Source of the DNA: an uncultured Solirubrobacterales bacterium
Lineage (GTDB): Bacteria > Actinomycetota > Thermoleophilia > Solirubrobacterales > 70-9
Assembly (NCBI GenBank): GCA_963838035.1
Contig: CAWIPM010000009.1
Location: 40,229-104,228 of the forward strand
Reading direction: 5' to 3'
DNA length: 64,000 nucleotides
A program made the translations under genes and the position numbers. Of this stretch, positions 21,314-63,648 are shown in pieces (the first letter of the stretch is position 1; each line of letters starts with the position of its first letter). The notes beneath the pieces were generated by a model, which did no database searches, was not told the origin of the DNA, and saw only the letters and a list, made by a program, of their open reading frames with translations.

Positions 21314-21319
21314 GCTGCC

Positions 21320-24519: not shown

Positions 24520-24523
24520 AACG
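24508..24523. promoter_or_regulatory. parS-like site (one mismatch to the GTTTCACGTGAAAC core)
   Basis: cGTTCCACGTGAAACg lies at the rnpA/yidD junction, about 3 kb upstream of parAB and about 0.6 kb from dnaA. Confidence 0.45.
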
Positions 24524-25537: not shown

Positions 25538-25546
25538 GGTGCGGGC

Positions 25547-26706: not shown

Positions 26707-26757
26707 AGCCGGGGGCCCGCCCCCCGCTCCCGCTTCCTCCAAATAGTCTGGCCCTAC

Positions 26758-27516
26758 ATGGGAGTCGTCTACGCGGTCGCGAACCAAAAGGGTGGAGTCG
26801 GGAAGACGACCACCGCGGTCAACATCGCCGCCTGCACCGCCGCCTCCGGCTCCCAGACGCTCCTGGTCGACCTCGATCCGCAATGCAACGCGACGGTGGC
26901 GCTCGGCGGAGACCGCGACCTGCATCCTTCCTCCTACGACTGCCTTATCGGCGAGGTCTCGGTCGCCGGCGCCGCGAGGCCGGCGGGGCCCGACAACCTC
27001 TGGCTGGTGCCGGCCAATCGCGATCTCGCCGGCGCTGCGGTGGAGCTGCCGCGGATCGACGGCTCTGAGACGCGGCTGCGCGCGCGCCTGGGCCCGGTTC
27101 GCGAGCGGTTCGCGGCCACCCTGCTCGACTGCCCGCCGTCGCTGGGCCCGATCAGCGTCAACGCGCTGGTCGCCGCGGATCGGGTGATCGTGCCGGTCCA
27201 GGCCGAGTACCTGGCGCTGGAGGGGCTCGTCCAGTTTCTCGAGACGCTCAACCTGATCCGTCGCGAGCTCAATCCGGCGCTGGAGGTATCGGGCCTGCTG
27301 GTCACCATGCACGACGAGCGCACGCGGCTCGCGCAGGACGTCGAGCGCGAACTGCGCGAGCATTTCCCCGGGCTGGTGTTCGAGACGGTGATACCCCGCA
27401 GCGTGCGGGTAGCCGAGGCCCCCAGTTATGGTCTGCCCGTGACCGAGCACTCCCCCCACTCGCGCGGGTCCGACGCCTACAGGGCAGTTGCCAGGGAGCT
27501 GGCAGAGCGTGGCTAG
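26758..27516 (+). CDS. parA: chromosome partitioning ATPase ParA/Soj
   Basis: Deviant Walker A NQKGGVGKTTT, then LLVDLDPQCNAT and VIPRSVRVAEAPSYG. Confidence 0.9.
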   Translation: MGVVYAVANQKGGVGKTTTAVNIAACTAASGSQTLLVDLDPQCNATVALGGDRDLHPSSYDCLIGEVSVAGAARPAGPDNLWLVPANRDLAGAAVELPRIDGSETRLRARLGPVRERFAATLLDCPPSLGPISVNALVAADRVIVPVQAEYLALEGLVQFLETLNLIRRELNPALEVSGLLVTMHDERTRLAQDVERELREHFPGLVFETVIPRSVRVAEAPSYGLPVTEHSPHSRGSDAYRAVARELAERG

Positions 27517-28381
27517 CGGGACGAAACGGGGGATCGGCCGCGGTCTGGCGGCGATCCTGCCGGAGACCGCCGCCGGAGATGCTGGCGAGCTGCTCGAGCT
27601 CCCGGTCGGCTTGATCAAGCCGAATCCGAACCAGCCTCGCAAGACGTTCGACCCCGAGGCGCTGGCCGGCCTCGCCTCTTCGATCGAGGCGAGCGGGGTT
27701 GTGCAGCCGTTGTTGGTGCGGCCGCTGCACGACGGCAGCTACGAGCTGATCGCCGGCGAGCGGCGCTGGCGCGCCGCCCAGGAGGCCGGGCTGGAAAAGG
27801 TCCCGGCCGTGGTCCGCGATCAGGAGGAGGCCGAGCGGCTGCAGGCGGCGCTGATCGAGAACATGGTGCGCGAGGACCTCAACCCGGTCGACGAGGCGCG
27901 CGCCTGCGCCGCCCTCGTTGAGGAGCTCGGCCTCTCGAAAGAGGATCTGGCGCGGCGCGTGGGCCGCAGCCGTCCCGCCGTCTCCAACCTGATTCGGCTG
28001 CTCGACCTGCCCGACGAGGTGCTGGAGCTGCTCGAATCGGCCAAGTTGAGCGAAGGGCACGGTAAGGCGCTGCTCTCCGCCGACGGCAACGACGTCCGCA
28101 GGCGCCTCGCGCGCGAGGCGGCGAGGGCGGGGTGGTCGGTCCGAGAGACCGAGGAGAGGGTTGGGCTGGCTGGCCAGCCAAAGGCAAAGAGGGGTCTTCG
28201 CAAGAGCGTCGACCCGGAAGAGGCGGCGGCGATGCGTGAGGCAGCCGACAGGCTCGAGTCGGCGCTCGGCCACGAGGTCAAGGTCCGATCCAGAGCCGGC
28301 GAGGTCGTCATCGAGATCCGCTTCGACGACCTCGATGAGGCCCTTGACCTGGCCCGCAAGCTGGGCGGTCGCCGAGCCTGA
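27509..28381 (+). CDS. parB: chromosome partitioning protein ParB/Spo0J
   Basis: KRGIGRGLAAIL, PNPNQPRK, GVVQPLLVRP and ELIAGERRWRAA. The GTG at 27509 overlaps the parA end by 8 nt. Confidence 0.9.
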   Translation: MASGTKRGIGRGLAAILPETAAGDAGELLELPVGLIKPNPNQPRKTFDPEALAGLASSIEASGVVQPLLVRPLHDGSYELIAGERRWRAAQEAGLEKVPAVVRDQEEAERLQAALIENMVREDLNPVDEARACAALVEELGLSKEDLARRVGRSRPAVSNLIRLLDLPDEVLELLESAKLSEGHGKALLSADGNDVRRRLAREAARAGWSVRETEERVGLAGQPKAKRGLRKSVDPEEAAAMREAADRLESALGHEVKVRSRAGEVVIEIRFDDLDEALDLARKLGGRRA

Positions 28382-47992: not shown

Positions 47993-48754
47993 CTACCGGG
48001 GGGTGCAGGCCTTCTGGACATCGCCGGCGATCACGGTTTCGCCTACGTCGGCAAAGGTGAAGCGCCCGTGGGTTTCGAGCACGCCGTCCGAGCAGTGGGC
48101 TGACGTGTAGCTGCGCAGGCGCCCTCCGAAGCGGTAGCGCCTGCCGATCTTCGCGTCGATGTGGGTCAATGCGCCGAATCCGCCCGCGATCGGGGGGATG
48201 TCGATCGTGGCCCGGTAGCCGAAGCGGCCTCTCCGACGTTCGATCGGGACGACGATCGCGAAGGTCTGGGTTCCGGGGACGGTCGTCTGGGCATGGAGAA
48301 TCACCGTCATATTGCCGTTCTGCCGAACCCCGTTGAACACGGTCAGCGGCGAGGAGGCTTCGATCGAGAGCATGCCCACCTCGATCGCCGCGGAGACATG
48401 CCCGGTCCCGACGATCGCGCCTCGGCAGGCGCTGCGTGCCTCCTGCGGCGTGGCGTTCTCGACTCGTTCGAGCGGACAGGTCGGCAGCCCACGGGTGCTG
48501 ATCCGCCCGTCGCGGTCGAACTCGAGAATCGCCTGCTTGAGCGTGGGCGGAAACGAGCCGTCCCGCGTCCCGATGTCTGCGTGCCCCTGGAAATGGATCG
48601 GCGCGAAGGCGCGCCTCGGAAGCCGGCGCGGCTCGAATCCTCCGTCCGCGCGCAGAACCAGCGGCCCGTATTCGAGCACAGCTTCGGCCGCTGCCGTGCC
48701 GACCGCCAGGCAGCAGGTCACCAGAACCGCGATTGCCAGGGCTCGCTTCACCAT
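47993..48754 (-). CDS. secreted four-cysteine protein, paralog A of a three-member family in this window
   Basis: Signal peptide MVKRALAIAVLVTCCLAVGTAAAEA. Shares GLPTC, FNG, IPPIAGGFGALT, RSYTSAHC and C-terminal CTP motifs with 52237-53022 and 62030-62812. Confidence 0.6.
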   Translation of the reverse strand: MVKRALAIAVLVTCCLAVGTAAAEAVLEYGPLVLRADGGFEPRRLPRRAFAPIHFQGHADIGTRDGSFPPTLKQAILEFDRDGRISTRGLPTCPLERVENATPQEARSACRGAIVGTGHVSAAIEVGMLSIEASSPLTVFNGVRQNGNMTVILHAQTTVPGTQTFAIVVPIERRRGRFGYRATIDIPPIAGGFGALTHIDAKIGRRYRFGGRLRSYTSAHCSDGVLETHGRFTFADVGETVIAGDVQKACTPR

Positions 48755-48917
48755 CTCCCTCCGTAACAAGGCTAGCGCCGGCCCGATTCTGTCCGTCGCG
48801 GGCCGGCGCCTTCTCGACAGTCAGAGCGAAGTAAGCCCCGCCATCGGCGTGTTCCTTAACAGAACCTTCTGCGTTCGGGACTCCCTGTCGCCTCCGTAAC
48901 CGCCAAACTACCGGGTT

Positions 48918-51900
48918 GTGTTGCTAAGGAGGAGCAGGGGGCGCGACGGGAAGCTGCGCGAAAAGGGGGACCGCCGTGTCCCGCTGACGCTGCGTCACCC
49001 ACGCCGGGCGCTGGCCATCGCGGCGCTCCTGATCGCCGCTCTCGCTGCGTTTGGCTTCAGCCTCGAGGAAAAGCTCAGCCCGAGCACGCTGGACATCCCC
49101 GGCACCTCGGCCGAACACGCCAACAAGATGTTGACCGAACACTTCGGCAATACGGCGCTGTTCGCGATCCTGCTACAGGGGCCGTCGGCGTCGATCGACC
49201 AGCAGGGCCCTGAACTGGTGCGCACCCTGCGGCGTGACCCGAAGGTCTCCACCCTCTCTCCCTGGGACAAGGGGTCGGTCGGGCGATTGCGCCCCGGCCC
49301 CCGCCGCGCCCTGATTCTCGCCGACTTCCACGTCGGAACCGCGGAGGCGGTCAAGGAAAAGGTCCCGCTGCTCAACCGCATCCTGGAAGAAAGGATCAGC
49401 TCGCCGGTGCGGGCCACCCAGAGCGGTTTCGCCACCCTCACACGGTCGATCCAGGACGAGTCGATCACCGCCAGTGAGCGCGGCGAGCTGATCGCCATGC
49501 CGATCCTCCTGATCGTCCTCCTGCTCGTCTTCCGCTCACCGGTGGCGGCGGCGATCCCGCTCGGCTTCGGCGCCGTCTCGGTTCTGACCTCGCGCGGGCT
49601 GCTCGCGCTCCTCACCAACGTGTTCGGCGTCGACGCGCTGGCACTAACCGTCTGCTCGATGATGGGCCTTGCTCTGGGGGTCGACTACGCCCTCTTGATG
49701 GTCTCGCGCTTCCGCGAAGAGCTGGCAGAAGGCGCCGAGCCGATCGACGCCGCCTGGGCGACCCGGCGAACCGCCGGGCGGACCACGGTCTTCGCGGGCA
49801 GCACGCTGGTGCTGGCAATGGTCGTGGCGATGTTCGTCGTTCCCGGGGCGCTGCTCGCCTCGCTGGCGGCGACCCTGGCGCTGGTCGTCGTGCTGACCGT
49901 CACCGTCGCCACCGTGGTCGGCCCGCCGATCCTCGCTCTGCTCGGCCCCAACGTCGACCGCTGGCGAGTCGGCGCCGCGCCGGACGGCAGTCGCTCGCGG
50001 CTGATGACGTTTGTCTCCGCCGCCCTCCGCCGCCCCGCCCCCGTCGCCGCCGCGATCGGCGTCCTGGTCCTGGCCCTGGTGACGCCGGCGATCGGGCTCA
50101 AGACCGGGCCCTTCAGCGTCTCCCAGCTCCCCCACAACGACCCCGCCCGCCAGGACGCCGAACTGATCCAGAAGTCGATCGGGGCCGGCTTCGAAGCGCC
50201 CTACGTGATCGTCGCCACCACCAAGGACGGCACGATCACCGAACCCGATCGTCTCGCTGCCCTCACTCGGTGGCAACGCAAGATCGCGGCCACGCCCGGC
50301 GTCCAGACGGTGATCGGCCCGGCGCAGGTCTCGCACTCGGTCGCGCCGCTTCGCAGGTCCGGCACGGCGCTGATCTCCGAAAACGAATCGGGCCCGGCGG
50401 CCGGCCTCGGGCGCCTCGGCCACAGCCTGTCCCGCCTGTCTGGCGGCGTCCGCCAGCTGCGCGAAGGCCTCGCCGAAGCCAGCTCCGGCGCCGGCCTGCT
50501 CGCCGACGGCTCCGGCAAGGCCGGCAGCGGCGCGTTGACGATCTCGAACGGCCTCGCCAAGGTCAGCGCCGGCAGCGAAGAACTGGTCAGCGCGATCGAC
50601 GAATTCTCCGCCGGGTCAAAGAAACTGGCTGAAGGCCTGGAAAAAGCGTCGCTCGGCGGGCTCCAGCTGAAGGCAACGCTGCGCGAAACGCCGACCAATC
50701 TGCGCATCAACCCCCAACGCCGCTCCCGCAAAACGCAGAAGTCGCTCAACAAAGACGCCTACGAAACCATGCCGAAGCTGAACGGCGCCGCCGGCGCCGC
50801 CAACGAACAGCTGGCGACCGCGTACCAGCAGCTGCAGGCGATGACTTCGGGGAAAACGGACAGCCATTACGGGGCGGCGCTGGAAGCCGTCGAGAAGGCC
50901 TCGGCGGCGGTCAGCGGCACCAACCCCGCCAGCGGCCAGCCCTACGCCGCCGAATACGCGGGCCTGCCGGCCGAACTCGCGGCGCTTGAAAAACGGCTGC
51001 TCGTCGATCACGAAGAACTCGAACAGATCAGTCATCTCTTGGCGGGTGAAATCAGCAACCTGACCAAGCTGGCCGGGACCGCGGCGGAACTCTCCGAAGG
51101 CCTCGAAAAACTGGAAGAAGGCGGCAAGGAACTCGCCGACGAATCGGCCCGCCTGGCCAAGTCCGTCGAACCGCTGCCGAGCAACCTCGGACGGCTCTAC
51201 GGCGGCGCCGTCTCCCTGGTCGGCGGCATATCCCAGCTCACCGGCGGCGCCACGGCGCTGCAGGAAAACCTCGCCTCCGGATTCCAGCGGGCCGCCCCGA
51301 TCCAGACGGGATTGCGGCGAGCCAGCGTCCGGGTGATCGCCAACAACGCGAAGCTGCAGCGGCGCCTCAGCGGGGTGCGCCGCCAGACGCCCGGAATCTT
51401 CGACTCTGGCTACTTCGTCCTCTCGGCCCTCGACGGCGCGCCGCCGCGCTCGCGCGAAAACGCCTCGGAAGTGGTCGACCTGAACGGCGGCGGCCAGGCT
51501 GCGTCGATGCTGATCTTCTCCCGCTACGGCTTCAACTCTCCCGGCTCGATCGCCCTCAACAAGCGCCTCGACGCCGACGCCGCGGCGCTCGGCAAGGAAG
51601 CCGACGCGACCACCGGCGTCGCCGGCGGGGCCGCCACCCTCAACACATACAGTCAGGTCACCAGGGCCAGGATCCCACTCGTGATCGCGGCAATCACCAT
51701 CGCCACCTTCCTGGTCATGCTCCTGGTCCTGCGGGCCCTGCCGCTGGCGGCGATCGCGGTGGCGCTCAACCTGATCACCGTCGGCGTCGCCTTCGGCGTG
51801 CTGACGCTGCTCTTCAACGTGCCCGAAGGCTGGCCACTGGGCGGGCGCACCTACGTCGACGCGGTGGGGATGACGATGATCTTCGGCGTCGTCTTCGGGC

Positions 51901-52232
51901 TCTCGATCGACTACGCGGTATTCCTGCTCGTGCGGATGCGCGAGCACTACGACCGCGAGGGCGACAACGCCGCCGCGATCGAGTTCGGCCTCGAAAAGAC
52001 CGCGCGGGTGATCACCGGCGCCGCGGTGATCATGATGGCCGTCTTCATCGCCTACGCCGGGGCGCCGATCGCGACGGTCAGCCAGTTGGGGATCGGGCTG
52101 ACCGTCGCGGTGTTGCTGGATGCCACCGTGGTTCGCATCGTCTTCCTACCGGCTTTGATGCTGTTGATCGGCGACAGGGTCTGGTGGGTGCCGCGCTGGC
52201 TGGAGCGCGTCCTTCCCAAGTTGAACGTCTGA
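48918..52232 (+). CDS. MMPL/RND-family transporter with about 330-aa heptad-repeat insertion in the second periplasmic domain
   Basis: Two 6-helix bundles (e.g. GVDYALLMVSRFREE and GLSIDYAVFLLVRMREH) and a long xxxLxxG-type repeat region. The start is uncertain: an AAGGAGG lies inside the ORF at 48926-48932. Confidence 0.85.
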   Translation: MLLRRSRGRDGKLREKGDRRVPLTLRHPRRALAIAALLIAALAAFGFSLEEKLSPSTLDIPGTSAEHANKMLTEHFGNTALFAILLQGPSASIDQQGPELVRTLRRDPKVSTLSPWDKGSVGRLRPGPRRALILADFHVGTAEAVKEKVPLLNRILEERISSPVRATQSGFATLTRSIQDESITASERGELIAMPILLIVLLLVFRSPVAAAIPLGFGAVSVLTSRGLLALLTNVFGVDALALTVCSMMGLALGVDYALLMVSRFREELAEGAEPIDAAWATRRTAGRTTVFAGSTLVLAMVVAMFVVPGALLASLAATLALVVVLTVTVATVVGPPILALLGPNVDRWRVGAAPDGSRSRLMTFVSAALRRPAPVAAAIGVLVLALVTPAIGLKTGPFSVSQLPHNDPARQDAELIQKSIGAGFEAPYVIVATTKDGTITEPDRLAALTRWQRKIAATPGVQTVIGPAQVSHSVAPLRRSGTALISENESGPAAGLGRLGHSLSRLSGGVRQLREGLAEASSGAGLLADGSGKAGSGALTISNGLAKVSAGSEELVSAIDEFSAGSKKLAEGLEKASLGGLQLKATLRETPTNLRINPQRRSRKTQKSLNKDAYETMPKLNGAAGAANEQLATAYQQLQAMTSGKTDSHYGAALEAVEKASAAVSGTNPASGQPYAAEYAGLPAELAALEKRLLVDHEELEQISHLLAGEISNLTKLAGTAAELSEGLEKLEEGGKELADESARLAKSVEPLPSNLGRLYGGAVSLVGGISQLTGGATALQENLASGFQRAAPIQTGLRRASVRVIANNAKLQRRLSGVRRQTPGIFDSGYFVLSALDGAPPRSRENASEVVDLNGGGQAASMLIFSRYGFNSPGSIALNKRLDADAAALGKEADATTGVAGGAATLNTYSQVTRARIPLVIAAITIATFLVMLLVLRALPLAAIAVALNLITVGVAFGVLTLLFNVPEGWPLGGRTYVDAVGMTMIFGVVFGLSIDYAVFLLVRMREHYDREGDNAAAIEFGLEKTARVITGAAVIMMAVFIAYAGAPIATVSQLGIGLTVAVLLDATVVRIVFLPALMLLIGDRVWWVPRWLERVLPKLNV

Positions 52233-52236
52233 CCCG

Positions 52237-53022
52237 TTACGGCTTCTTCTTGCACCCCTGCTTCGAATACGCGGTCAGCGTTACGTTGTCTTTGAAGGTG
52301 AAGGCGCCGCGTGCCTTCAGCGGTGACTTCTTGCACTCGGCAATGACGTAGCTGCGCTGCTTGCCCTTGTACTTGAACTTCTTGGAGATCGTGGTTTCGA
52401 AATCGGTCAACGCGCCGGTGCCGCCTGCGATCAACGGGATGTTGATGTTCAGGCGAGGGCCGTAGCCTTCCTTGTTGAGGCCGACGACGGTGCCTTCCAG
52501 CACGAGCGTCACCTGAACCGGCGATTCGCCGAAGGTGTGAAGGAGGACGACCGGGACGTTGCCCTGGGGCGGGCCGTTGAAGGCGGTCACGGTCTGGTTC
52601 TGGACGAAGACCTGGGAGCCGACCGCCAGCAGCGCCGACGCCTTGCCGCCGCCGATCTTCGCCTTGCCGCATTCGCGCAGCGCGATCTGGGTCGAGGTGT
52701 TCTGGATCTTGCCTGGATTGCAGGTCGGGACGCCCTTGGCGAAGATCTTGACGTTCTTGTCGAAGTCGACCACCGCATTGATCGCCGGCGACGGCACGCC
52801 GTTGGCGGACGTGGTCGACGTCGTTTTCGTCGTGACCCTGAGTGTCGCGGGGGTCGGCTTGCTCTTCGAGAGCTTCTTTGGCGAGAGCTGCACGCCGATT
52901 GCCTGCGTGTTCCCGTCGCTGCCTACGACGGTGGGGCCCAATTGGCCCGCGAGGGCTGTGGACGCGATGATCGCGGTCACGGCTATCGCGGAGCCCACAA
53001 TCAGAGTCGGACGTTTGCGCAT
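52237..53022 (-). CDS. secreted four-cysteine protein, paralog B
   Basis: Signal peptide MRKRPTLIVGSAIAVTAIIASTALA. Motifs GVPTC, FNG, IPLIAGGTGALT, RSYVIAEC and a C-terminal C. AGGAG lies 6 nt upstream of the ATG at 53022. Confidence 0.6.
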   Translation of the reverse strand: MRKRPTLIVGSAIAVTAIIASTALAGQLGPTVVGSDGNTQAIGVQLSPKKLSKSKPTPATLRVTTKTTSTTSANGVPSPAINAVVDFDKNVKIFAKGVPTCNPGKIQNTSTQIALRECGKAKIGGGKASALLAVGSQVFVQNQTVTAFNGPPQGNVPVVLLHTFGESPVQVTLVLEGTVVGLNKEGYGPRLNINIPLIAGGTGALTDFETTISKKFKYKGKQRSYVIAECKKSPLKARGAFTFKDNVTLTAYSKQGCKKKP

Positions 53023-53208
53023 GGCATCTCCTGGTTCGAAAACATTGGCCAAGCGCCTCCCAGTGCAATAACCGTGCTGCACCTCCAGAGTAGCGCGTTG
53101 ACTTCCAGTTAAGTCCCTGTTCCAGGCACGCGTGACGGCTGGTCGCTTGGATACGATTCCGGCGCCGTTCTACCGGGTCGGAGGCCGGGGAACGACAAGC
53201 GACGACCC

Positions 53209-54612
53209 GTGGCTGCCAAACCCTTAGGCGAGGAGAAAAGCACGGCGCAAAGCCGGGGGATCACCCCAGCGCGGATTGCCGTGATCGCGGGGCTGGCGGC
53301 GGCCGTCATCGCCCTCGCCGTCATCCTCTTCAGCGGCGACGGCGAACACCAATACAACCTCCTCTTCCAGAACGCGGGCCAGCTCGTCCCGGAAAACCAG
53401 GTCCTGATCGGCGGGTCGCCCGTCGGCTCGGTAGACAGCATCGACCTGACCGCCAACAACCTCGCCGAAGTCCACGTCACCGTCGATCAGCAGCTGCATG
53501 AAGGCTCCACCGCGGTGATCCGCGCCACCTCGCTCTCGGGGGTCGCCAACCACTACGTCTCGATCAGCCCGGGCCCCAACAGCAACCCGCCACTCGGCGA
53601 AGGCTCCACGCTGGGCCTCGCCGCGACCACCACCCCGGTCGACATCGACCAGCTCTTCAACACCTTTCCGAACCCGGTGCGCCGCGCCCTCGGCCAGTTC
53701 GTCCGCGGCAACGCGGCCATCTACGCCGGCCGCGGCAAGGACGCGAACCAGACCTACAAGTACTTCGGGCCGGGGCTCAACCGCACCGCAGCCTTCGTCC
53801 ACGAACTGAATGCGGACCAGAGGCTCTTCGAGCGCTTCGTCGTCAGCTCCAGCAAGCTGGCGACCGCGGTCTCCCAGCGCGGCGAACAGCTCTCAAGCGC
53901 GATCTCCAACGCCAGCACCGCATTCGGGGCGATTGCCGCCCAGAACACCGCCCTCGACCGCAGCCTGCGCCTGCTGCCGCCGTTCCTGCGCCAGAGCAAC
54001 ACCACCTTCGTCAACCTTCGTGCCGCCCTCGACGACGTCGAACCGCTCTTCGACACGGCGAAGTCGGCGACCAAGAACCTCGCCCCGTTCCTGGCCGAAC
54101 TCCGCCCCGTCGTCTCCAAAGCCGTCCCGGTCTTCAAGAACCTCCGCCTCACCGTGCGCCGTCCCGGAAGCGCCAATGACGCCGCCGAGCTTCTCGCCGC
54201 GCTGCCGGCGGTGCAGGAGCGGGCCTCCAAGGCCTTCCCCCACTCCGAAGACGCGATCGCAGCCTTCCTGCCCAATCTCGCCTTCGCCCGCGCCTACACG
54301 CCGGACATCTTCAACGGGTTCGCGAAGGTCGGCCAGGTCGCGGGCTACTACGACGGCAACGGCAACTACGTCAGGGCGGCGACGGCCGACCTCAACCTCT
54401 TCAACTACAACAGCGGCAGCGGCGTCCTTGAACCGATCGCGCCGAGCGAACAGTTCGACGTCTTCGGGCCTGAAGCCGGTCCGCTGCGACGCTGCCCGGG
54501 CGGCGCAGTCCAGCCCGCCCCCGACGGTTCCAACCCCTTCGTCGACCCGCCCTGGAGCGGCGCTCCGACCTCGTCCGAATGCAACCCGGCCGATGTGCCT
54601 CCTGGACCATGA
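53209..54612 (+). CDS. Mce/MlaD-domain protein 1 of 6
   Basis: N-terminal helix IAVIAGLAAAVIALAVILF, then an MlaD-type segment (VLIGGSPVGSVDSIDL...VIRATSLSGVANHYVSISPGP) and a long helical C-terminal region. Confidence 0.85.
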   Translation: MAAKPLGEEKSTAQSRGITPARIAVIAGLAAAVIALAVILFSGDGEHQYNLLFQNAGQLVPENQVLIGGSPVGSVDSIDLTANNLAEVHVTVDQQLHEGSTAVIRATSLSGVANHYVSISPGPNSNPPLGEGSTLGLAATTTPVDIDQLFNTFPNPVRRALGQFVRGNAAIYAGRGKDANQTYKYFGPGLNRTAAFVHELNADQRLFERFVVSSSKLATAVSQRGEQLSSAISNASTAFGAIAAQNTALDRSLRLLPPFLRQSNTTFVNLRAALDDVEPLFDTAKSATKNLAPFLAELRPVVSKAVPVFKNLRLTVRRPGSANDAAELLAALPAVQERASKAFPHSEDAIAAFLPNLAFARAYTPDIFNGFAKVGQVAGYYDGNGNYVRAATADLNLFNYNSGSGVLEPIAPSEQFDVFGPEAGPLRRCPGGAVQPAPDGSNPFVDPPWSGAPTSSECNPADVPPGP

Positions 54613-56068
54613 GAAGGAAGCTGATCACAACCGCCCTGGTCGTCGCCTTCGTCGTCGTGGTCGTTCTGGTCGTCTCCGGCGGGGGCGGCGGTAACGGGTA
54701 CGTCGTCCGCGCTGCCTTCGACAGCGGCGGCTTCATGGTCCAGGGCGAGCAGGTTCGGGTGGCCGGGGCGAACGTCGGGGAAATCAAGTCGGTCAGCGTT
54801 TCGATGCCGGGCGAACTCGACAGCTACAAGGACGGCAAGCTGCAGGCCGTTCCGGGCAAAGCGCTGATCGAGATGGAAATCACCGATCCCGGCTTCCAGG
54901 ACTTTCGCAGCGACGCCAGCTGCGAGATCCGCCCGCAGTCGCTGATCGGTGAGAAGTTCGTCGACTGCCGACCCGACCCTGCCGCGCGCCCCTGGATCGC
55001 CGCCGGCACCTCCTCTGAAGAAGATCCCCTCCGGTCAGCCGGGCGCCGGCGAGTACCTGCTGCCGTTGGAGAACAACAGCACCAGTGTCGACCCCGATCT
55101 GATCAACAACATCCAATCCCTGCCCTACGCGCAGCGCTTCCGCCTCATTCTCAACGAACTCGGCGCCGGTCTGGCCGGGCGCGGCAAGCGACATCGAAGA
55201 AGTCGTCGAGCGCGCCAACCCCGTGCTGCGCGAAACCGACCGTCTCTTCGCAATCCTCGCCGCCCAGCGCCACCAGCTCGCTCAGCTCGCCAGCGACTCC
55301 GAGGAAATCCTGGGGCCGCTCTCGCGCGAGCGCGCCCACGTCGCCGGCTTCCTCGCCAACTCCGGCGCCGCCGCGCAGGCCAGCTCCGAACGCGGTCCCG
55401 AGCTGGAAGCCTCGCTGCGCAAGTTCCCCCGCTTCCTGCGCGAGTTCCGGCTGACGATGCGAAGCCTGCAGGGCTTCTCCGACGCGGGGACGCCGGTCTT
55501 CTCCTACCTCGACAAGGCTGCCCCCTCGCTGACCGACGCGACCAAGGAGCTGGCCCCGTTCTCCGAAGCCTCGACGGTGGCGCTGAAGAGCCTCGGCCAG
55601 ACCGGCGAAGTCGCCGGGCCGCTGCTGCGCGAAGCCGACCCGATCGTCCGCAAGACGACCGAACTTTCCAAGACCGGCGTCGCCCCGACCACGAATCTCG
55701 CCAAGTTCCTGGTCAACACGAAGAAGACCGGCGGTTGGGGCCGGTTGGTCAAATTGATCTACAACACGACTGCGGCGATCAACGGCTTCGACCAGTACGG
55801 CCACTTCGCCAGGACGCTGGTGACTCTCACCAATTGCGTCGACTACGAAGTCCATCCGGGATGTGGCGGCAGCGCCAACTTCACCGGCCCCGGGGCCGCC
55901 ACCTCGGCGACGACCAATCCGGCCCTCCTGTATCGAAAGCTCGAGCGCGACCTGGCCCGCCAGTCCGGAGGAACCGCCGCCTCGTCCTCGTCCTCGTCGC
56001 CGAGCGGCCCCGGCCAGAGCAAGACCGGCGGCACCGCCCCGCTCCTCAACTACCTCCTGGGCCCATGA
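54609..56068 (+). pseudogene. Mce/MlaD-domain protein 2 of 6, coding sequence spread over three frames (two extra bases)
   Basis: The length of 1460 nt equals 3n+2. Frame 1 reads MRRKLITTALVV...IRPQSLIGEKFVDC. Frame 2 reads ...EYLLPLENNSTSVDPDLINNIQSLPYAQRFRLILNELGAGLAGRG. Frame 3 reads DIEEVVERANPVLRETDRLF... and runs to the stop at 56068. Confidence 0.7.
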
Positions 56069-57495
56069 AGAGTCGCAGCGGACTGACAGGAGTCGCGAGC
56101 AGCCCGGTGCTGGTCGGCGCGGTCACGGTCCTGGTCGTGATCGTCGCCGTCTTCCTCGCCTACAACGCCAACAACGGCCTCCCATTCGTCTCCACCTACA
56201 ACCTCAAGGCCCAGCTCCCCAATGCCGACGCGCTGGTCAAGGGCAACGAGGTGCGCATCGGCGGCGTCCGAGTCGGCATCGTCAAGTCGGTGGTTCCAGT
56301 CCAGCTCGGCAACGGCCGTGTCGCCGCCCAGCTGTCGCTCAGCCTCGACAAGAGCGTCGAGCCGCTTCCGGTCGACTCGACGATGATCGTCCGGCCGAAG
56401 TCGGCGCTCGGGCTCAAGTACCTGCAGGTGACCCCCGGAAACTCGTCGCAGGGCTTTGCCGCGGGCGAAACGATCCCCCCCTCCGCCGCCCGTCCCGAAC
56501 CGGTCGACATCGACCAGTTCTTCGACATGTTCGACGAAAAGACGCGCAAAGCGATCCAGCGCAATGAGGCGGGCTTCGGCAACGCGCTGGCCGGCCGCGG
56601 CCCGCAGCTGAACGAAGCGTTCGGCGCGCTTCGCCGCCTGGTCGAAAGCAGCCAGCCGGTGCTGCGGACGATCGTCGCACCGAGCACCGACTTCGGTGGC
56701 TTCTGGAGAGCGCTGGAGGACCTCTCGGCCACCGTTGCACCGGTCGCCGAGACGCAGGCGAGCCTCTTCGTCGCCCTCGACCGCACCTTCGCCGCCTTCG
56801 CCCGCGTCTCCCGCCCATTCATCCAGGAAACGATCTCCAAGAGCCCCTCGACTCTCGACACCGCCAACGCCGACCTGCCGACGCTGCGGCCCTTCCTGCA
56901 CGACTCCGAACAGTTCTTCGTTGCCCTCAAGCCCGGCGCCAAGGCGCTGGCCGAAACCTCGCCGACGATCGCCGCCGCCCTGCACGCCGGCGTTCCTGCC
57001 CTCAACAAATCACCGATCCTCAACGCCCAGCTGGTGCCGACCGCGAAGGCGCTGCTCGCCTTCCAGAGCGCTCCCGGCGTCTTCAACGGGCTCGATCTGC
57101 TGATCGACACGAACAAGACCCTCGGCCCGGCGATCAAGTTCATCGGCCCGGCGCAGACGACCTGCAACTACCTGACTCTCGCCTTCAGGAATCTCGCCAG
57201 CGCGACCGAAGGGAGCGACGGGCTGGGCAACTGGCTCAACTTCATCTCCTTCACCCCCCCCGAAGGGCCGAACAACGAGGGCAGCCCGGCCTCGGCGCCG
57301 GCCAACGGAGGCGAAGTCAAAAACCACCTCCATTACAACCCCTACCCGAACACCGCTTCCCCGGGGCAGCCGAAGACGTGCGAAGCGGGCAACGTCCGTT
57401 ACCTGAGCGGCCAGACCGTGATCGGCCCATCCCCGGGGAATCCGCACACCACCACCACCTCGGGCCAGCTGGAAGGGCAGGGGGGTTCCAAGTGA
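56065..57495 (+). CDS. Mce/MlaD-domain protein 3 of 6
   Basis: Starts at the ATG at 56065 with an ATGA overlap. The sequence runs MKSRSGLTGVASSPVLVGAVTVLVVIVAVF...VRIGGVRVGIVKSV...IVRPKSALGLKYLQVTPG. It is embedded in the chimeric 848-aa track ORF. Confidence 0.85.
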   Translation: MKSRSGLTGVASSPVLVGAVTVLVVIVAVFLAYNANNGLPFVSTYNLKAQLPNADALVKGNEVRIGGVRVGIVKSVVPVQLGNGRVAAQLSLSLDKSVEPLPVDSTMIVRPKSALGLKYLQVTPGNSSQGFAAGETIPPSAARPEPVDIDQFFDMFDEKTRKAIQRNEAGFGNALAGRGPQLNEAFGALRRLVESSQPVLRTIVAPSTDFGGFWRALEDLSATVAPVAETQASLFVALDRTFAAFARVSRPFIQETISKSPSTLDTANADLPTLRPFLHDSEQFFVALKPGAKALAETSPTIAAALHAGVPALNKSPILNAQLVPTAKALLAFQSAPGVFNGLDLLIDTNKTLGPAIKFIGPAQTTCNYLTLAFRNLASATEGSDGLGNWLNFISFTPPEGPNNEGSPASAPANGGEVKNHLHYNPYPNTASPGQPKTCEAGNVRYLSGQTVIGPSPGNPHTTTTSGQLEGQGGSK

Positions 57496-59001
57496 GCCGT
57501 CTTCCCGAGCGCGACATCAGGCAGGGGGCCACCAACCGCCGCTTCAAGTGGCGACCCAGCAACGCGATGATCGCGGTGATCTTCATCGTCGTCTTCACGG
57601 TCGGTCCCTACCTGGCCTTCACCGGCCATGTGCCCTTCACCAGCTACGGCTACGAGCTGAAGGCGACCTTCTCCAACTCGGCCAACATCGCGCTCAACTC
57701 GCCGGTGCGGATCGCCGGCGTCGAAGTCGGCCAGGTGATCTCGGCCGAACGCGACGGCGACAACACCACGGTCACCTTCACGGTCAGCGAATCCGGGACG
57801 GCCGGTCCACACCGACGCCTTCGCCGCGATCAGGCCGCGGATCTTCCTCGAGGGCAACTTCTTCGTCGATCTGGACCCCGGCAGCCCGAGCGCGCCGGAC
57901 ATGGCCAGCGGCGCGACGATCCCGGTCAGCCACACCTCCACCGCGGTCCAGCTCGACCAGATCCTCACCGCGCTGCAGTCGCCGGTGCGGGCCGACCTCA
58001 GCCGCCTGCTGGAGAGCTACGGTGAAGCGCTTACGCATAAGCCGACGGCGGCCGAAGACGCGACACAGCTCCCCGAGGTGAAAGGCAAGACGGGCGCCGA
58101 GGGGCTGAACGGCGCCTTCAAGTACGGCGGCCCGGCCGGTCGTTACAGCGCCCAGGTCAGCAATGCTCTCCTCGGCACCCAGCCGCACGATCTCTCGCGC
58201 CTGATCGCCGGCGCCGGGCGCACCTTCGGCGCCTTCGCCAGCCGCGAGAGCGATCTCCAGGGCCTGATCGTCAACTTCGACACCTTCACCGGCGCCCTCG
58301 CCGCCCAATCGGCCAATCTCACGGCGACCGTCCACCGCCTCGCCCCGGCTCTGGCGGCCGGCCGCGCCTCGCTGGTCAGCCTCAACCGCACGCTGCCGCC
58401 GCTGCGCACCTATGCGATCGAGCTGACGCCCGCGGTGGCCGAGCTGCCGGGGCTGATCGCCGCCTCGAAACCATGGCTCGAACAGGCGCGCCCGCTGCTC
58501 TCCGGCAAGGAGGGCGGCGGCGTGGCCAAGCTGCTCGCCGAGCTGACGCCGGGCCTCGCCGGCGCCGCCCAGGCGGGCAAGGCGAACGCCCTGCCTCAAC
58601 TCAACCGGATCAGCCTCTGCACCACCAAGGTGCTGGTCCCGACCGGCAATCAGACGATCAACGATCGCTTCAGCACCGGCGGCCCCAATTACCGCGAGTT
58701 CCTCTTCTACCTCGCCAACTTCTCCGGTCAGGCCGAGAACTTCGACGGAAACGGCCCCTACCTGCGCATCCAGGGCGGTGGTGGGGAAAAGCTGGTGGAA
58801 GAGTCGAATCTGAAAGCCCCGCTCATCTCCGACCAGAAGCAGTTCGCCCACTCGGCCGTCTCTCCGCTCGGCACCCAGCCCCAGCTCGGTGGACGCCCCC
58901 CGTTGAAGCCGGAAGTGGACTGCTTCGACAACCCCGTCCCCGACGTGAACGCCGGCCTCGGCCAGGTCGGAGCGCCCAGCCCCGTGGCGGTGAACCCATG
59001 A
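57492..59001 (+). pseudogene. Mce/MlaD-domain protein 4 of 6, one extra base near 57795-57799
   Basis: The length of 1510 nt equals 3n+1. Frame 1 reads VSRLPERD...VRIAGVEVGQVISAERDGDNTTVTFTVSESG. The next frame reads RPVHTDAFAAIRPRIFLEGNFFVDLDPG... and runs to the stop at 59001. Confidence 0.7.
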
Positions 59002-60407
59002 GCGAGCGTGAATCCCAGGTGGGCCGCCTCAAGCACTTCCGCCTGGCGCTGGCCCGGCAGGCGCGCGGCCACGGCAAAGACACGGTCGCGATCGTCGTCC
59101 TCACCTTCCTCGGCATCGTGATGATGCTGGGGATCTTCGTTCAGCAGAAAGCCTCGCTGCCGTCCTGGATCCCCGTGGTCGGCGAAAGCTTCGACCACAT
59201 CACCGCCGAGTTCACCACCGCCCAGGCGGTCACCCCGGGGCAGGGCCAGGCCGTCGACATCGCCGGCATCCAGGTCGGCAAGATCACCTCCGTCGACCTC
59301 GAAGAAGGCCACGCCGTCGTGGGCATGGACATCGAGCCCAAGTACATGAAGCTGATCCACCCCGACGCGACCCTGTTGCTGCGGCCGAAGACCAACCTCA
59401 ACGACATGGTGATCGAGGTCTCGCCTGGAACCGGCCGGGGGCATATCGAAAGCGGCGACAACATCCCCCTCTCCCGCACCCAACCGAATGTCAACCTGGA
59501 CGCCTTCCTCGCCACCCTCGACACCGACACCCAGCGCTACCTGCAGCTGCTGGTGGCCGGCGGCGCGCAGGGAATCGGCGGCCGTGGCCGCCAGCTTTCC
59601 GGCGTCTTCCGCCGGCTTGAGCCCTTCTCCCATTACCTGGCCAAACTCAATGGCGCCGTCGCCAAACGCCATGTCGCGCTTGCCCGCGTTATCCACGACT
59701 TCGGCCTGCTCACCACCGAACTCGGCCGCCACGACGCCGAGATCAAGCGCTTCGTCACCTCCTCCGACGCGGCCCTCGGCAACTTCGCCAACCAGCAACA
59801 ATCGATTCAGGAAGCGCTGCGCGAGTTCCCGGCGACCCTGCAGGCCGCTCGAGCGGGCTTCGCCAGCGCCGACCGCTTCTCGACCGCGGCCCGCCCGGCG
59901 CTCTTCGGCCTGATTCCCCAGGCCCAGGCGCTCTCGCCGGCCTTCACCGCGACCGAGCGCTTCTTCAAGCAGACGACCGCTCCGATCCGCGACCAGATCC
60001 GGCCCTTCACCCGTCAGATACGCCCGGTGCTGACCCACACGGCCGAAGGCTCTTCTTCCTTGAAGAAGACGGTCACCGGCTTCGGCAACTCGCTCGGGGC
60101 GTTCAACTCGTTCCTCAACGAGCTCGCCTACAAGCCGAAGGGCTCGAAGCAGAGCTACCTCTTCTACCTGCCGTGGCTTAACCACGACCTCAACGCGACC
60201 TTCAACCTCCAGGACGGGGGCGGGCCCGTTGGCCGGGGACTCGTCATGGTCACCTGCAACTCGTCGACCCTCGCCTTCGGGTTCGCCGGCGTCAGACCCT
60301 TCCTGAAGACGCTGCTCGATGCCGCCCGGGTTCCCCGGCCGCATGAACTTCCAGAAGTGCACGATCCCGAAAACCCTCAGGCCACCTGCGGACCGGAAAG
60401 CAAATGA
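58998..60407 (+). CDS. Mce/MlaD-domain protein 5 of 6
   Basis: Starts at the ATG at 58998 with an ATGA overlap. TM helix VAIVVLTFLGIVMMLGIFV, then VDIAGIQVGKITSV...LLRPKTNLNDMVIEVSPG. Confidence 0.85.
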   Translation: MSERESQVGRLKHFRLALARQARGHGKDTVAIVVLTFLGIVMMLGIFVQQKASLPSWIPVVGESFDHITAEFTTAQAVTPGQGQAVDIAGIQVGKITSVDLEEGHAVVGMDIEPKYMKLIHPDATLLLRPKTNLNDMVIEVSPGTGRGHIESGDNIPLSRTQPNVNLDAFLATLDTDTQRYLQLLVAGGAQGIGGRGRQLSGVFRRLEPFSHYLAKLNGAVAKRHVALARVIHDFGLLTTELGRHDAEIKRFVTSSDAALGNFANQQQSIQEALREFPATLQAARAGFASADRFSTAARPALFGLIPQAQALSPAFTATERFFKQTTAPIRDQIRPFTRQIRPVLTHTAEGSSSLKKTVTGFGNSLGAFNSFLNELAYKPKGSKQSYLFYLPWLNHDLNATFNLQDGGGPVGRGLVMVTCNSSTLAFGFAGVRPFLKTLLDAARVPRPHELPEVHDPENPQATCGPESK

Positions 60408-61960
60408 GCAAGCGCGCGCCAAGCACAACCCAACTCCTGGTCATCGTCGGCTTCGCGCTGTCCTGCTTCGCCATCCTGCTCTTCCTCTGGGTCACGTTCG
60501 GCGGGCCGACTCCTTTCAAGGCGAAGCCCTACCAGGTCAAGATCCCCTTCAACGAGGCGACCCAGCTGGCGGAACAGTCAGACGTGCGGATCTCCGGCGT
60601 CTCGGTCGGCAAGGTCCAGAACATCGCGCTTGCCCCGAACGGCAAGCAGGCCTTGGCGACGATCGACGTCGACAATAAGTACGGGCCGCTGCCCAGGTCG
60701 ACCAGGGCGATCCTTCGCACCAAGACGCTGCTTGGCGAGACCTACGTCGAACTGACCCCCGGCAACCGCAACGGGCCGAAGCTGGCGGACGGCGCAACGC
60801 TGCCGACGGCGAACGTGGCGCAGTCGGTCCAGCTCGACGAGATCTTCCGCACCTTCGACGCGCGGACGCGCGCGGCCTTCCAGACCTGGATGCAGGAATC
60901 CGCGGTCGCGATCGCGGGTCGCGGCCAGGACTTCTCCAACGCGCTGGGCGAGTTCGAACCGACCTTCACCGAATTCGACAAGCTGTTCCGCGTCCTCGAC
61001 ACCCAGCGCCTCGCGGTCAGCCAGCTCTTCCGCAACGGCGCCGTCAGCCTACGGGCTCTGCGCGGCGGCGAAGGCCAGCTGGCGAGCCTGATCCGCAACT
61101 CCAACGCTGTCTTCACCACCACCGGGCAGCGCGATCGAGACATCGAAGCGCTCTTCCGCGCCTTCCCGACCTTCCTCGACGAGTCGAAGGCGACGCTGAC
61201 CCGGCTCAAAGCCTTCGCGCTCGACACCGACCCGACCGTGCGCCAGCTCGTCCCCGCCGCCGAACAGCTCTCGCCGACCCTGATCGCCTTCTCGCGCCTT
61301 GCTCCGCAGGCGAAGGGATTCTTCGAAGGCCTCGAAACGGTGATCGCCGGCGCTCCGACCGGCTTCCCAGCCGTCCGCAAGCTCTTCCGCGACCAGTTCC
61401 CGCCGCTGCTGCGGGCGCTTGACCCATTCCTCCGCAACCTCAACCCGATCCTCACCGGCCTCGGGCTCTACAAGCATGAGATCACGGGCGTGCTTGGCAA
61501 CGTCGCGGCGGCCACCAACGCGGTATTGCCGACCGAAAACTCAAATGGTGAAAAGTTCCACTACCTGCGGGCGATGGGGCCGCTGAACCCGGAATCGCTG
61601 GCCACATTCAACCGGCGCCTCACGATCAACCGCAACAGCGCCTACAGCCCACCGCTCTGGGCGAAGGACCTGGCGGGCGGGCTGCCCAGCTTCGAGACCA
61701 GGCAGTGCAGCTCGGGCATCACGGCCTCGCTCGATCCCGAAACTCCGAACAACCCCTCCTTCATCGCACGCACCAAGAAGGGCGAAGCGAAAGAAGCCGT
61801 CGAATTCTTCGAAAACCTGAAGAAGTACGCGTTCGCAGAACAGACCGACTCCAGCTCGATCCCCGCCCCCGGCTGCGCCCAGCAGGCTCCGTTCAGCCCG
61901 ATCGGCAAGCCCGGCTCCGCGACGACCTACCAGCACACCTTCGCCCAGCAGGGCGAATAG
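60404..61960 (+). CDS. Mce/MlaD-domain protein 6 of 6
   Basis: ATGA overlap with the preceding gene. TM helix LLVIVGFALSCFAILLFLWV, then VRISGVSVGKVQNI...ILRTKTLLGETYVELTPG. Confidence 0.85.
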   Translation: MSKRAPSTTQLLVIVGFALSCFAILLFLWVTFGGPTPFKAKPYQVKIPFNEATQLAEQSDVRISGVSVGKVQNIALAPNGKQALATIDVDNKYGPLPRSTRAILRTKTLLGETYVELTPGNRNGPKLADGATLPTANVAQSVQLDEIFRTFDARTRAAFQTWMQESAVAIAGRGQDFSNALGEFEPTFTEFDKLFRVLDTQRLAVSQLFRNGAVSLRALRGGEGQLASLIRNSNAVFTTTGQRDRDIEALFRAFPTFLDESKATLTRLKAFALDTDPTVRQLVPAAEQLSPTLIAFSRLAPQAKGFFEGLETVIAGAPTGFPAVRKLFRDQFPPLLRALDPFLRNLNPILTGLGLYKHEITGVLGNVAAATNAVLPTENSNGEKFHYLRAMGPLNPESLATFNRRLTINRNSAYSPPLWAKDLAGGLPSFETRQCSSGITASLDPETPNNPSFIARTKKGEAKEAVEFFENLKKYAFAEQTDSSSIPAPGCAQQAPFSPIGKPGSATTYQHTFAQQGE

Positions 61961-61988
61961 AAAGGGCGGCCCGAAGGCCGCCCTTTCT
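61959..61988. terminator. 13-bp GC-rich hairpin, candidate bidirectional intrinsic terminator between the mce operon and paralog C
   Basis: AGAAAGGGCGGCC-cgaa-GGCCGCCCTTTCT forms a perfect stem. It starts inside the mce6 stop codon and has only a short T-run on either side. Confidence 0.6.
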
Positions 61989-62029
61989 CCCCTTGCCCGT
62001 GCTGAGGAAAGACCGCTGGGTAAGCCGCC

Positions 62030-62812
62030 CTAGCCCTTCGGCGTGCAGGGCACGACGATCGCGCCGTGGAGCCTGTTGTTGTTCCTGAAGACGGCTTCAC
62101 CGGTGGCGTTGAGGTGCCCGTCTGGGCACTTGGCGAGGAAGTAGCTCTGCTTCTTGCCCTTGTTGGTGAACAGCCGGTGGAGGGTGAGGCTGAAGCTGGA
62201 CACCGAGCCCTGCCCTCCGACGATGACCGGGACCGAGGCGACCGCATGCTCTCCGTAGCGGCCTTTGTGCTCCTTTTTGATTTTCACCGTGGTGACCACC
62301 GCCGACGGCGCCGGCACCGAGACGAAGGCGTGGATGAAGATCGTCGTCACCCCGCCCTTGATACCGCCGTTGAAGGCGAGCAGCTTGCTGGTCACGGGGA
62401 TCGGCGCCTGTTCTGCGAAGTAGATCACCAGGTGCGTCGTGCCCTGGCCGACGATGGAGTCCTTGCAGACCGCTTCCGCGCTCTTGGAGTCCCGCGCCTC
62501 CAGCTGGCCCGCCTTACAGGTCGCGAGGCCCTGTGGGTTGACAGCTCCGTTCTTGTCGACGTCGGTGATGACTTCCTTCAGCGCCGGCGTCGGGGAGCCG
62601 TCGGTCGTGGTGAGGCCGGCGCTCGCAGTTAGAGAGACCGGCGCAAGCGTCTTCTTCGGCAGCGCCTTCGGTGAGATCTTGCCGCTGAAGCTGAGCTGCA
62701 GGTTCCCCAGTCGCACGGTGGCTTTGGAGCCGTTGCCTGCTACTGCCGCCGCCGCTGCGACGAGCGCGACTACTGCGCCAAGTGCGAATACCAACGTCAA
62801 ACGTTTGCGCAT
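62030..62812 (-). CDS. secreted four-cysteine protein, paralog C
   Basis: Signal peptide MRKRLTLVFALGAVVALVAAAAAVA. Motifs GLATC, FNG, VPVIVGGQGSVS, QSYFLAKC and C-terminal CTP. The ATG at 62812 is preferred to the track start at 62899. Confidence 0.6.
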   Translation of the reverse strand: MRKRLTLVFALGAVVALVAAAAAVAGNGSKATVRLGNLQLSFSGKISPKALPKKTLAPVSLTASAGLTTTDGSPTPALKEVITDVDKNGAVNPQGLATCKAGQLEARDSKSAEAVCKDSIVGQGTTHLVIYFAEQAPIPVTSKLLAFNGGIKGGVTTIFIHAFVSVPAPSAVVTTVKIKKEHKGRYGEHAVASVPVIVGGQGSVSSFSLTLHRLFTNKGKKQSYFLAKCPDGHLNATGEAVFRNNNRLHGAIVVPCTPKG

Positions 62813-62958
62813 GTCCCTAAATCTCTCCTTTGAAGCCGGCCGTCCAGCGCCGAGCGGTTGAATGCTTGTCATCCCTCCAAGCGACAAAAGTAGCAACATC
62901 AGCCATCGAATAAACCCGGCAATTCACAAAAAAGAGCGCCTTAACAAGGGCAGAAGAG

Positions 62959-63648
62959 CTAGCTCTCGAGCATTGAGAGCCGAATCCGCTCGCGCTCCGC
63001 GGCGGCGCGCTCCGCACCCAGGAAGGGCAGGGCGACCCAGAACATCAGGTCGGGCAGGCGGCTCGGCAGCCGCGCCGCCGACCCATGCAGGATCTCGCTG
63101 TAGAGCAGCTCGTTTATCCCTCCGGCAAGCGAGAGGGACGTGATCCCCGGCAGCTCGACTGAGGTTTCGGCCCGTCCGGCATCGAGAAACCCGGTGAACT
63201 GCCGCAGCGCGGCATCGCGGCGGGCCAGGGCTTTGGGGCCTGCCGCAAGCACCTCGACGATTGCAAACCGGCCCTCGTCCGGGTGCTCGGCGAGATGGTC
63301 GAGCAGTGCTCCGAGGCCCGCGGCAACACGCTCCGCCCAGGGCGCTCCGGGCTTCGACTCGAAGCCACGCGCGGTGTCGCCGATCAGGTTGTCGAGCAGC
63401 ACGTCATAGGCGGCCAGGAAACAGTCCTCCTTGCTCGTGAACAGCTCGTAGAACGTCTTTCTGGACACCCCGGCGACGGTGATCACGTCAACCACCCGCG
63501 TATCCGGGTAGCCGCGCTCGGAGACGACCTCGACCATCGCCTGGTGGATGCGGTTGCGCTGGGATTCCGCCACGGCCTCCCGCGGTAACCCGTGCCGGCC
63601 CCTGGGCAGCCGCTCGCCAGACCTAGCTGGGCGTCTACCTGTAGCCAC
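62959..63648 (-). CDS. TetR/AcrR family transcriptional regulator
   Basis: The N-terminal HTH is RNRIHQAMVEVVSERGYPDTRVVDVITVAGVSRKTFYELFTSKEDCF. Confidence 0.85.
   Translation of the reverse strand: MATGRRPARSGERLPRGRHGLPREAVAESQRNRIHQAMVEVVSERGYPDTRVVDVITVAGVSRKTFYELFTSKEDCFLAAYDVLLDNLIGDTARGFESKPGAPWAERVAAGLGALLDHLAEHPDEGRFAIVEVLAAGPKALARRDAALRQFTGFLDAGRAETSVELPGITSLSLAGGINELLYSEILHGSAARLPSRLPDLMFWVALPFLGAERAAAERERIRLSMLES

Follow-up and report, generated by a model that had tools for sequence, protein, structure and literature searches.

A conserved mceA-F hexad without neighbouring permease or ATPase genes in Solirubrobacterales, a candidate half of a split lipid transporter

Introduction

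The canonical Mce module consists of eight linked genes, yrbEAB and mceA-F (PMC13492129). We analyzed a 64-kb window (the whole stretch of DNA under study, with a G+C content of ~68%) of a Solirubrobacterales metagenome-assembled genome (MAG), in which six consecutive genes, mceA-F, encode MCE proteins with no YrbE/MlaE permease gene and no MlaF/MceG-type ATPase gene beside them. The same hexad, lacking yrbE and lying downstream of a gene for an MmpL3-like MMPL protein, is present at every one of the 77 Solirubrobacterales loci that could be evaluated, and a separate Solirubrobacterales operon carries permease and ATPase genes with exactly the six mce genes missing. We consider it probable that the hexad is the MCE half of a split ATP-binding cassette (ABC) lipid transporter, with the YrbEA/YrbEB-ATPase engine encoded at a second locus and acting in trans. 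Six MCE genes apparently set apart from their permease and ATPase in a large, abundant soil lineage would be new: a literature search returned no paper on unlinked yrbE and mce genes, on orphan mce operons, on Mce systems of Thermoleophilia or Solirubrobacterales, or on linkage or coupling of Mce and MMPL proteins.

Results

Six translationally coupled MCE proteins

A preliminary description of this DNA had reported six collinear open reading frames (ORFs) at 53209-61960, and we recovered all of them on the plus strand. Four are intact: mceA (53209-54612; 467 amino acids, aa), mceC (56065-57495; 476 aa), mceE (58998-60407; 469 aa) and mceF (60404-61960; 518 aa). The remaining two, mceB (54609-56068) and mceD (57492-59001), are disrupted. 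All five junctions are 4-nucleotide (nt) start/stop overlaps, ATGA at four of them and GTGA at one. Consistent with the same description, each ORF has a hydrophobic N-terminal helix, visible in the translation, and an MCE segment (Pfam MlaD/MCE, E-values of 3e-10 to 4e-19), and the peptide motifs that it quoted were located in the translations of MceC, MceD, MceE and MceF. The six proteins have a single MCE domain per chain. The NCBIfam model TIGR00996 ("MCE family") matched mceA, mceC, mceE and mceF, the four tested, with scores below its curated cut-off. A MceA-family profile matched all six Mycobacterium smegmatis Mce1 chains in structures 8FED, 8FEE and 8FEF; past the MCE domain, matches to Mce4_CUP1 (PF11887) were weak and under the gathering score, and the profile reached the Mce1 chains to about residue 290. 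The hexad encodes six coupled single-pass MCE proteins that are homologous to Mce1A-F.

From its N-terminus, MceA has a conserved cytoplasmic tail (MAAxxLGEEKS), one transmembrane (TM) helix, the MCE domain, an apparently helical segment and a C-terminal domain that contains Cys. The LGEEKS part of the tail is cytoplasmic, invariant and lineage-specific. MceA of this type belongs to a broad family, with 397 cluster representatives at E ≤ 1e-30 in an exhaustive search of such representatives. GC skew across the hexad (window 54000-62000) is -0.13 to -0.15 despite the plus-strand genes, far stronger than in the rest of the window.

Absence of permease and ATPase genes beside the hexad

One genome per GTDB species was scanned with a MceA alignment, and 442 genomes were found to encode a relative. 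The best 80 of these 442 (MceA 69-79% identity), all of them Solirubrobacterales-type MAGs, and three further loci from protein look-ups make up a set of 83 loci, 77 of which had sufficient upstream sequence for the spacing between the MMPL gene and the mce genes to be counted. The best MceF relatives, too, carry the name Solirubrobacterales in their sources. Closed chromosomes with the hexad include OY970339.1 (at about 2.229-2.238 Mb), OY969812.1, OY970074.1, OY969774.1, OY969915.1, OY969423.1, OY970329.1, OY970377.1, OY970376.1, OY969422.1, OY970165.1, OY970260.1, OY969913.1, OY970321.1, OY968772.1 and OY969417.1. We searched the window and the 83 loci (~1.7 Mb) in six frames with two home-built MlaE hidden Markov models (HMMs), and scanned ~50 predicted window genes against Pfam. 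As a positive control, the first MlaE HMM recovered unseen Thermoleophilia MlaE at ~1e-45. Neither the six-frame search nor the Pfam scans found an MlaE/YrbE-like ORF in the window, in agreement with the preliminary description, and the HMMs found no MlaE gene in the 83 related loci. That description had suggested that yrbEAB immediately upstream of orthologous hexads would indicate simple local loss; yrbEA and yrbEB do not stand immediately upstream of mceA in the window or at any of the 83 loci, among relatives with MceA identities of 69-87%.

We found no MlaF/MceG-type ATPase in the 64-kb window, where the sole ABC ATPase belongs to an ABC-2 exporter at ~35.4-37.4 kb, and the Pfam scans of window genes gave no PqiA/LetA-like protein. 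Three ORFs that flank the cluster were considered as the missing permease and rejected, each having a single hydrophobic segment. Mam/Mas genes are absent downstream of mceF; a hairpin, a convergent gene for a secreted protein without a family match and a TetR gene are found there instead. The hexad has the MCE proteins of the actinobacterial Mce family and lacks the linked yrbEAB; its architecture is therefore a variant one, not that of a canonical operon.

A permease/ATPase operon lacking exactly the six mce genes

We inspected the gene contexts of family members with MceA at ~40-47% identity and found canonical operons in four Thermoleophilia loci. Locus L087 (Baekduia) has a divergent lipoprotein gene, yrbEA, yrbEB, a gene for an MlaF-like ATPase, mceA-F and, 82 nt later, an MMPL gene (19111-21335). 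Locus L088 (Thermoleophilaceae) has one mlaE gene (7742-8548), an ATPase gene, mceA-F, a methyltransferase gene and the start of an L087-type MMPL gene. In L089, a soil contig, one mlaE gene (8145-8951), an ATPase gene and mceA-F are followed, after a 1-nt gap (mceF end 18721), by an MMPL gene at 18723-21287. Locus L090 has yrbEA, yrbEB, an ATPase gene and mceA-F, and ends inside mceF, too early for a downstream MMPL gene to be seen. From MceA to MceF, each protein of the window lineage finds its best match in the same-position gene of these operons, one-to-one, at 36-52% identity and with the same gene sizes, indicating that the hexads share one six-gene ancestor. Unlike the hexad, the canonical operons open with an mlaE gene or a pair of them, followed by the gene for an MlaF-like ATPase, and in L087, L088 and L089 they have an MMPL gene after mceF whose product belongs to the HAE3/HpnN-like group. 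This operonic MMPL protein gave no phmmer match to the MMPL protein of the window and is unrelated to it at the sequence level.

By contrast with these operons, locus L093, on a 528-kb long-read MAG contig, carries yrbEA, yrbEB, an ATPase gene and, 2 nt later, an HAE3 MMPL gene; its 21 kb of sequence contain no mce gene. When JGI metagenomes were scanned with the YrbEB of L093, 80 soil contigs of up to 484 kb were returned (YrbEB 84-98% identity), and the four-gene layout recurs in every contig long enough to show it. An MCE-domain HMM that finds six ORFs per canonical locus found no MCE ORF in these 81 loci (L093-L173; 1.14 Mb, with full 10-kb flanks at 35 of them). The genes of the operon are intact in short-read contigs, and its ATPase falls into a 90%-identity cluster of 1647 sequences, indicating that the lineage is abundant. 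A conserved Solirubrobacterales permease/ATPase operon that lacks precisely the six mce genes therefore exists. The preliminary description, which viewed the hexad as an orphan, had held that a yrbE/ATPase set without mce genes of its own would speak against that view; at the level of lineages, the 81 loci are such a set.

Thermoleophilia mce operons usually include an HAE3/HpnN-like RND transporter, which we found in no paper; likewise, we found no description of an ABC-MCE-RND operon in the literature. The recurrent pairing of Mce and RND proteins, which includes the unrelated MMPL protein beside the hexad, hints that non-mycolate actinobacteria coordinate the import of lipids with their export. 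A single mlaE gene takes the place of the yrbEA/yrbEB pair in some canonical operons (L088 and L089), implying that the permease beneath the heterohexameric Mce ring is a homodimer.

The hexad as the probable half of a split transporter

Service in trans by yrbE and mceG genes elsewhere in the genome, mentioned as an alternative in the preliminary description, is the better explanation of the hexad, because a mce-less yrbEA-yrbEB-ATPase-MMPL lineage exists and sister lineages hold all parts in one operon. The ancestor would have had a single operon with a divergent lipoprotein gene, yrbEA(B), the ATPase gene, mceA-F and a gene for an HAE3-type MMPL protein. In the window lineage, the hexad would have become its own transcription unit near oriC, with its own upstream block and terminator, beside the unrelated MmpL3-like MMPL gene and a TetR gene, and the permease/ATPase/HAE3-MMPL operon would have been left behind without mce genes. 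Judging from the 8FEE structure, the six Mce subunits would form a heterohexameric ring and a needle or tunnel across the wall, like Mce1 (PMC13492129). This tunnel would sit on the YrbEA/YrbEB-ATPase engine and assemble with it in trans, as with MceG of M. tuberculosis. We infer that the two halves occur in the same genomes, that they assemble jointly and that their cargo is lipid. If the split were confirmed, two transcription units at separate loci could jointly supply one complex, and systems of this kind would be missed or misread by operon-based annotation.

Supply in trans of an essential Mce component has a precedent in M. tuberculosis, where MceG (Rv0655) is a shared ATPase serving Mce1-4 from a distant locus (PMC13492129). 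In mycobacteria, however, only the ATPase is unlinked, whereas here the permease pair would be unlinked too, which is unreported. Orphan hexads and mce-less operons are both slight outgroups to the same four canonical lineages, have similar G+C contents and derive from the same kinds of soil data sets, which we take as weak evidence for linking the halves.

Several observations weigh against this split. The two halves were never found in one genome, and no contig name or size is common to the two sets apart from one coincidence of 37,472 bp, which involves different source records (ENA only versus NCBI HEV accessions) and was taken as chance. Neither P0079 nor ribosomal protein L34, when looked up, led to a contig common to the hexad and yrbE sets, and exact look-ups of the window's MceF and of its database copy P0001 gave no record. 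The top 120 of more than 8000 matches in an MlaE profile search likewise included no contig of the hexad set, a result that carries no information, since conserved MlaE sequences are merged into clusters at 90% identity. The flanks of hexad loci and of yrbE-operon loci do not overlap at the DNA or protein level, and the motif upstream of mceA is absent from the yrbE operons, which give no sign of shared regulation. The literature has no description of YrbE permeases whose genes lie away from their mce genes. Lastly, a split transporter leaves the invariant adjacency of the MMPL gene (77/77) as incidental.

Frame disruption of mceB and mceD

The preliminary description had counted two of the six genes as frame-disrupted and had raised the possibility of a decaying remnant. 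The two genes are mceB and mceD, but mceB carries two frameshifts rather than one: +1 insertions, one near 54971 and one near 55186, neither of which offsets the other. In mceD there is a net +1 indel near 57797-57815. If mceB and mceD were real pseudogenes, the hexad of this particular genome would be non-functional, which is compatible with a split transporter in the lineage. The non-compensating insertions in mceB fit such decay, as does the restriction of the indels to mceB and mceD: no frameshift was seen in 18 window genes at 14.8-33.3 kb, nor in the MMPL, tatC and tetR genes. Some relatives (L012 and L045) also have many frame changes and low identity in mceC-F.

By contrast, the pattern among the 83 loci argues for sequencing or assembly error. 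Frameshifts in mce genes are confined to long-read assemblies (of the Microflora Danica type), namely nine loci and the window, and no short-read assembly has a disrupted copy of any of the six genes. The long-read assemblies concerned also show frameshifts in small flanking genes. In the window, the other four mce genes are intact, and the disrupted two align at 68-94% identity to orthologues that are intact in relatives, with lengths of 499-507 aa for mceB and 502-506 aa for mceD. Because mce frameshifts are absent from short-read assemblies, and because small flanking genes are likewise frameshifted in the error-prone ones, we conclude that the hexad is maintained by the lineage. Decay at the level of the lineage, which retains all six genes, is unlikely; the three indels of the window are more likely assembly errors than signs of decay, and a non-functional remnant in this one genome is an unlikely explanation of the hexad.

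In four long-read MAGs (L012, L045, L079 and L080), indels and low-identity stretches concentrate in the mceC-F regions, and the adjacent 3.3-kb MMPL gene is spared. This clustering may stem from problems in the local assembly or from a genuine relaxation of selection in some populations.

The neighbouring MMPL protein

As the preliminary description had it, the plus-strand ORF at 48918-52232 encodes an MMPL/RND protein (Pfam MMPL, E-value of 7e-52). The protein is 1104 aa long. Two stretches of Pfam match and the hydropathy profile give two MMPL membrane modules with ~12 TM helices. The membrane core is MmpL3-like: the nearest solved relative in the PDB is MmpL3 (1e-51), with MmpL5/MmpL4 next. 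The NCBIfam MmpL3 and actII MMPL models match below their curated cut-offs, and far under the MmpL3 equivalog cut-off. Between TM6 and TM7 lies an insertion of ~525 aa (residues ~389-913; window 50082-51656) that has no family match, is rich in Ala, Gly, Leu and Glu and apparently helical, and is conserved in length in the 77 relatives. MmpL4/5 carry a periplasmic helical extension. The window protein shares the MMPL membrane core with MmpL3 and MmpL4/5 but differs from them in its ~525-aa insertion, and no MmpS-like gene was seen by it.

This protein is the basis of the proton-motive MMPL-coupled Mce conduit proposed in the preliminary description, in which the Mce hexamer would dock on the adjacent MmpL3-like RND protein and proton-motive force would load or unload lipid with no ABC engine. 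The linkage on which the proposal depends is indeed conserved in relatives. At all 77 loci the MMPL gene precedes mceA and is read in the same direction, and in 52 of them the gap is 121-366 nt with no gene between, while other flanking genes vary. The MMPL protein is the sole polytopic membrane protein of the conserved cluster, its unique periplasmic insertion could extend into the wall, and a second MMPL subfamily, unrelated to the first, is also linked to mce hexads within the Solirubrobacterales. Our literature search found no paper describing or excluding such a system.

However, the adjacency is conserved only within a fully syntenic lineage, in which the order in relatives is tatA, tatC, an unknown gene, a secreted-protein paralogue, the MMPL gene, at some loci a second paralogue, mceA-F, another paralogue, tetR, purA and dnaB. 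Because it lies inside this block, the adjacency is not independent evidence and carries little weight; the distant lineages have an MMPL gene of another subfamily, downstream of mceF and alongside yrbE and ATPase genes. Opposite-strand genes interrupt the pair in the window and in 25/77 loci, with one minus-strand gene of ~0.8 kb in 21 (an orthologue of the gene found at this place in the window) and two genes in 4. The mceA gene has a conserved upstream block of its own. The MMPL gene is free of frameshifts in every relative, including the long-read genomes whose mce genes combine to ~26. Moreover, the homologous hexads of sister lineages sit behind yrbE and ATPase genes, and a matching mce-less yrbE operon exists. 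The proposed conduit is thus unsupported, and we consider it improbable. It is also quite unlikely that RND/MMPL proteins are, more generally, working parts of Solirubrobacterales Mce machines, with the adjacent MmpL3-like protein feeding the tunnel by proton-motive force in place of, or alongside, a YrbE/MceG ABC engine; if true, this would account for the linkage of two unrelated MMPL subfamilies to mce genes within the Solirubrobacterales.

A stand-alone or differently partnered hexamer, acting as a passive lipid tunnel or with some unrecognised partner (the flanking secreted paralogues, for example) and using no ABC or RND engine, would fit the absence of an encoded engine within 53 kb upstream or 2 kb downstream of the hexad, the three paralogous secreted proteins that always flank the cluster and the invariant LGEEKS tail of MceA, but is very unlikely, given that all characterised MCE systems have an inner-membrane partner, whether MlaFE, YrbEAB-MceG, PqiA or LetA (established knowledge; PMC13492129), and that the paralogues, with one hydrophobic segment each, are not permeases.

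Putative control elements of the hexad

A conserved non-coding block on the plus strand (53092-53208; TTGAnTTCCAGTTAAGT ... CGGATACGATTC ... GGAGG) lies directly 5' of mceA. This 115-nt block is kept in 82-83 of the 83 loci regardless of which gene lies upstream, occurs once in the window and contains the inverted repeat GACTT-N6-AAGTC (53100-53115) as well as the motif CGGATACGATTC; indels inside it are not multiples of three. The block is probably the hexad's own promoter/operator and leader, and because it directly precedes mceA, the hexad looks like a transcription unit of its own. A structured RNA was considered for the block and rejected, with no Rfam match and no covariation support for a fold. 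Directly after the mceF stop codon, a G+C-rich hairpin can be read from the sequence on the plus strand (61961-61986; AAAGGGCGGCC-CGAA-GGCCGCCCTTT) and is likely the operon end or terminator.

The minus-strand gene at 62959-63648 encodes a TetR-family regulator (Pfam TetR_N). It is the best-conserved protein of the neighbourhood, with 86-91% identity across relatives as compared with 70-76% for the Mce proteins, and is a candidate regulator of the hexad. A TetR-type regulator is likewise found near mycobacterial mce3 and mce4. Together with the inverted repeat, the conserved TetR gene suggests local repression.

Flanking secreted paralogues

As noted in the preliminary description, the spacer at 53083-53208 abuts a minus-strand ORF (52237-53082; likely start 53022), located between the MMPL gene and mceA. 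The divergent gene was described as encoding a secreted protein, and the product does have a signal peptide or a single helix anchor; it is, however, one of three paralogues that flank the cluster. The first, for a secreted or anchored Cys-containing protein, is at 47993-48769 on the minus strand, divergent from the MMPL gene, and is present upstream of that gene in relatives. The third is at 62030-62899 on the minus strand, convergent with mceF. The three proteins share 28-31% identity, are ~230 aa each with conserved cysteines and a signal peptide or single anchor, and are encoded on the strand opposite to the MMPL gene and the hexad. None has a Pfam or NCBIfam family match, and the copy number of the paralogues varies among relatives. 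The family is absent from the canonical and the mce-less yrbE loci. An AlphaFold2 model built from a three-sequence alignment had a mean predicted local distance difference test score (pLDDT) of 37 and was unusable.

Comparison with known systems

Like mycobacterial Mce1-Mce4, the hexad consists of six tandem, translationally coupled genes whose products each combine an N-terminal TM helix with an MCE domain and a putative helical region. Unlike them, it has neither yrbEA/yrbEB directly upstream nor mam/mas genes downstream, its MceA has a distinct Cys-containing C-terminal domain and the LGEEKS tail, its host is a non-mycolate member of the Thermoleophilia, and the system is linked to MMPL genes. 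The MCE tunnels PqiAB and LetAB of E. coli work without an MlaE-type permease, which had motivated the MMPL proposal of the preliminary description. PqiB and LetB, however, form homohexamers in which each chain has several MCE domains, and their partner is encoded next to them; with one MCE domain per chain and no PqiA-like family among the scanned genes, the hexad is not of the PqiAB/LetAB kind.

Other features of the window

The replication-origin neighbourhood is at 14782-28381 (14.8-28.4 kb), with gyrA, gyrB, a dciA-like gene, recF, dnaN and dnaA on the minus strand, and rpmH (24005-24139), rnpA, yidD, yidC, jag, gidB, parA and parB on the plus strand. An exact match to the L34 sequence (44 aa) is present in 878 blocks of the public collection. 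A conserved actinobacterial cell-division/signalling cluster at 1544-12366 encodes Ser/Thr kinases (one with four PASTA domains), a PBP transpeptidase, FtsW/RodA, a PP2C phosphatase and two FHA proteins. In two relatives (L177, 1-3319, and L178, 1-3320), gyrA contains an intein with a LAGLIDADG endonuclease domain, giving a product of ~1260 aa as compared with 838 aa in the window.

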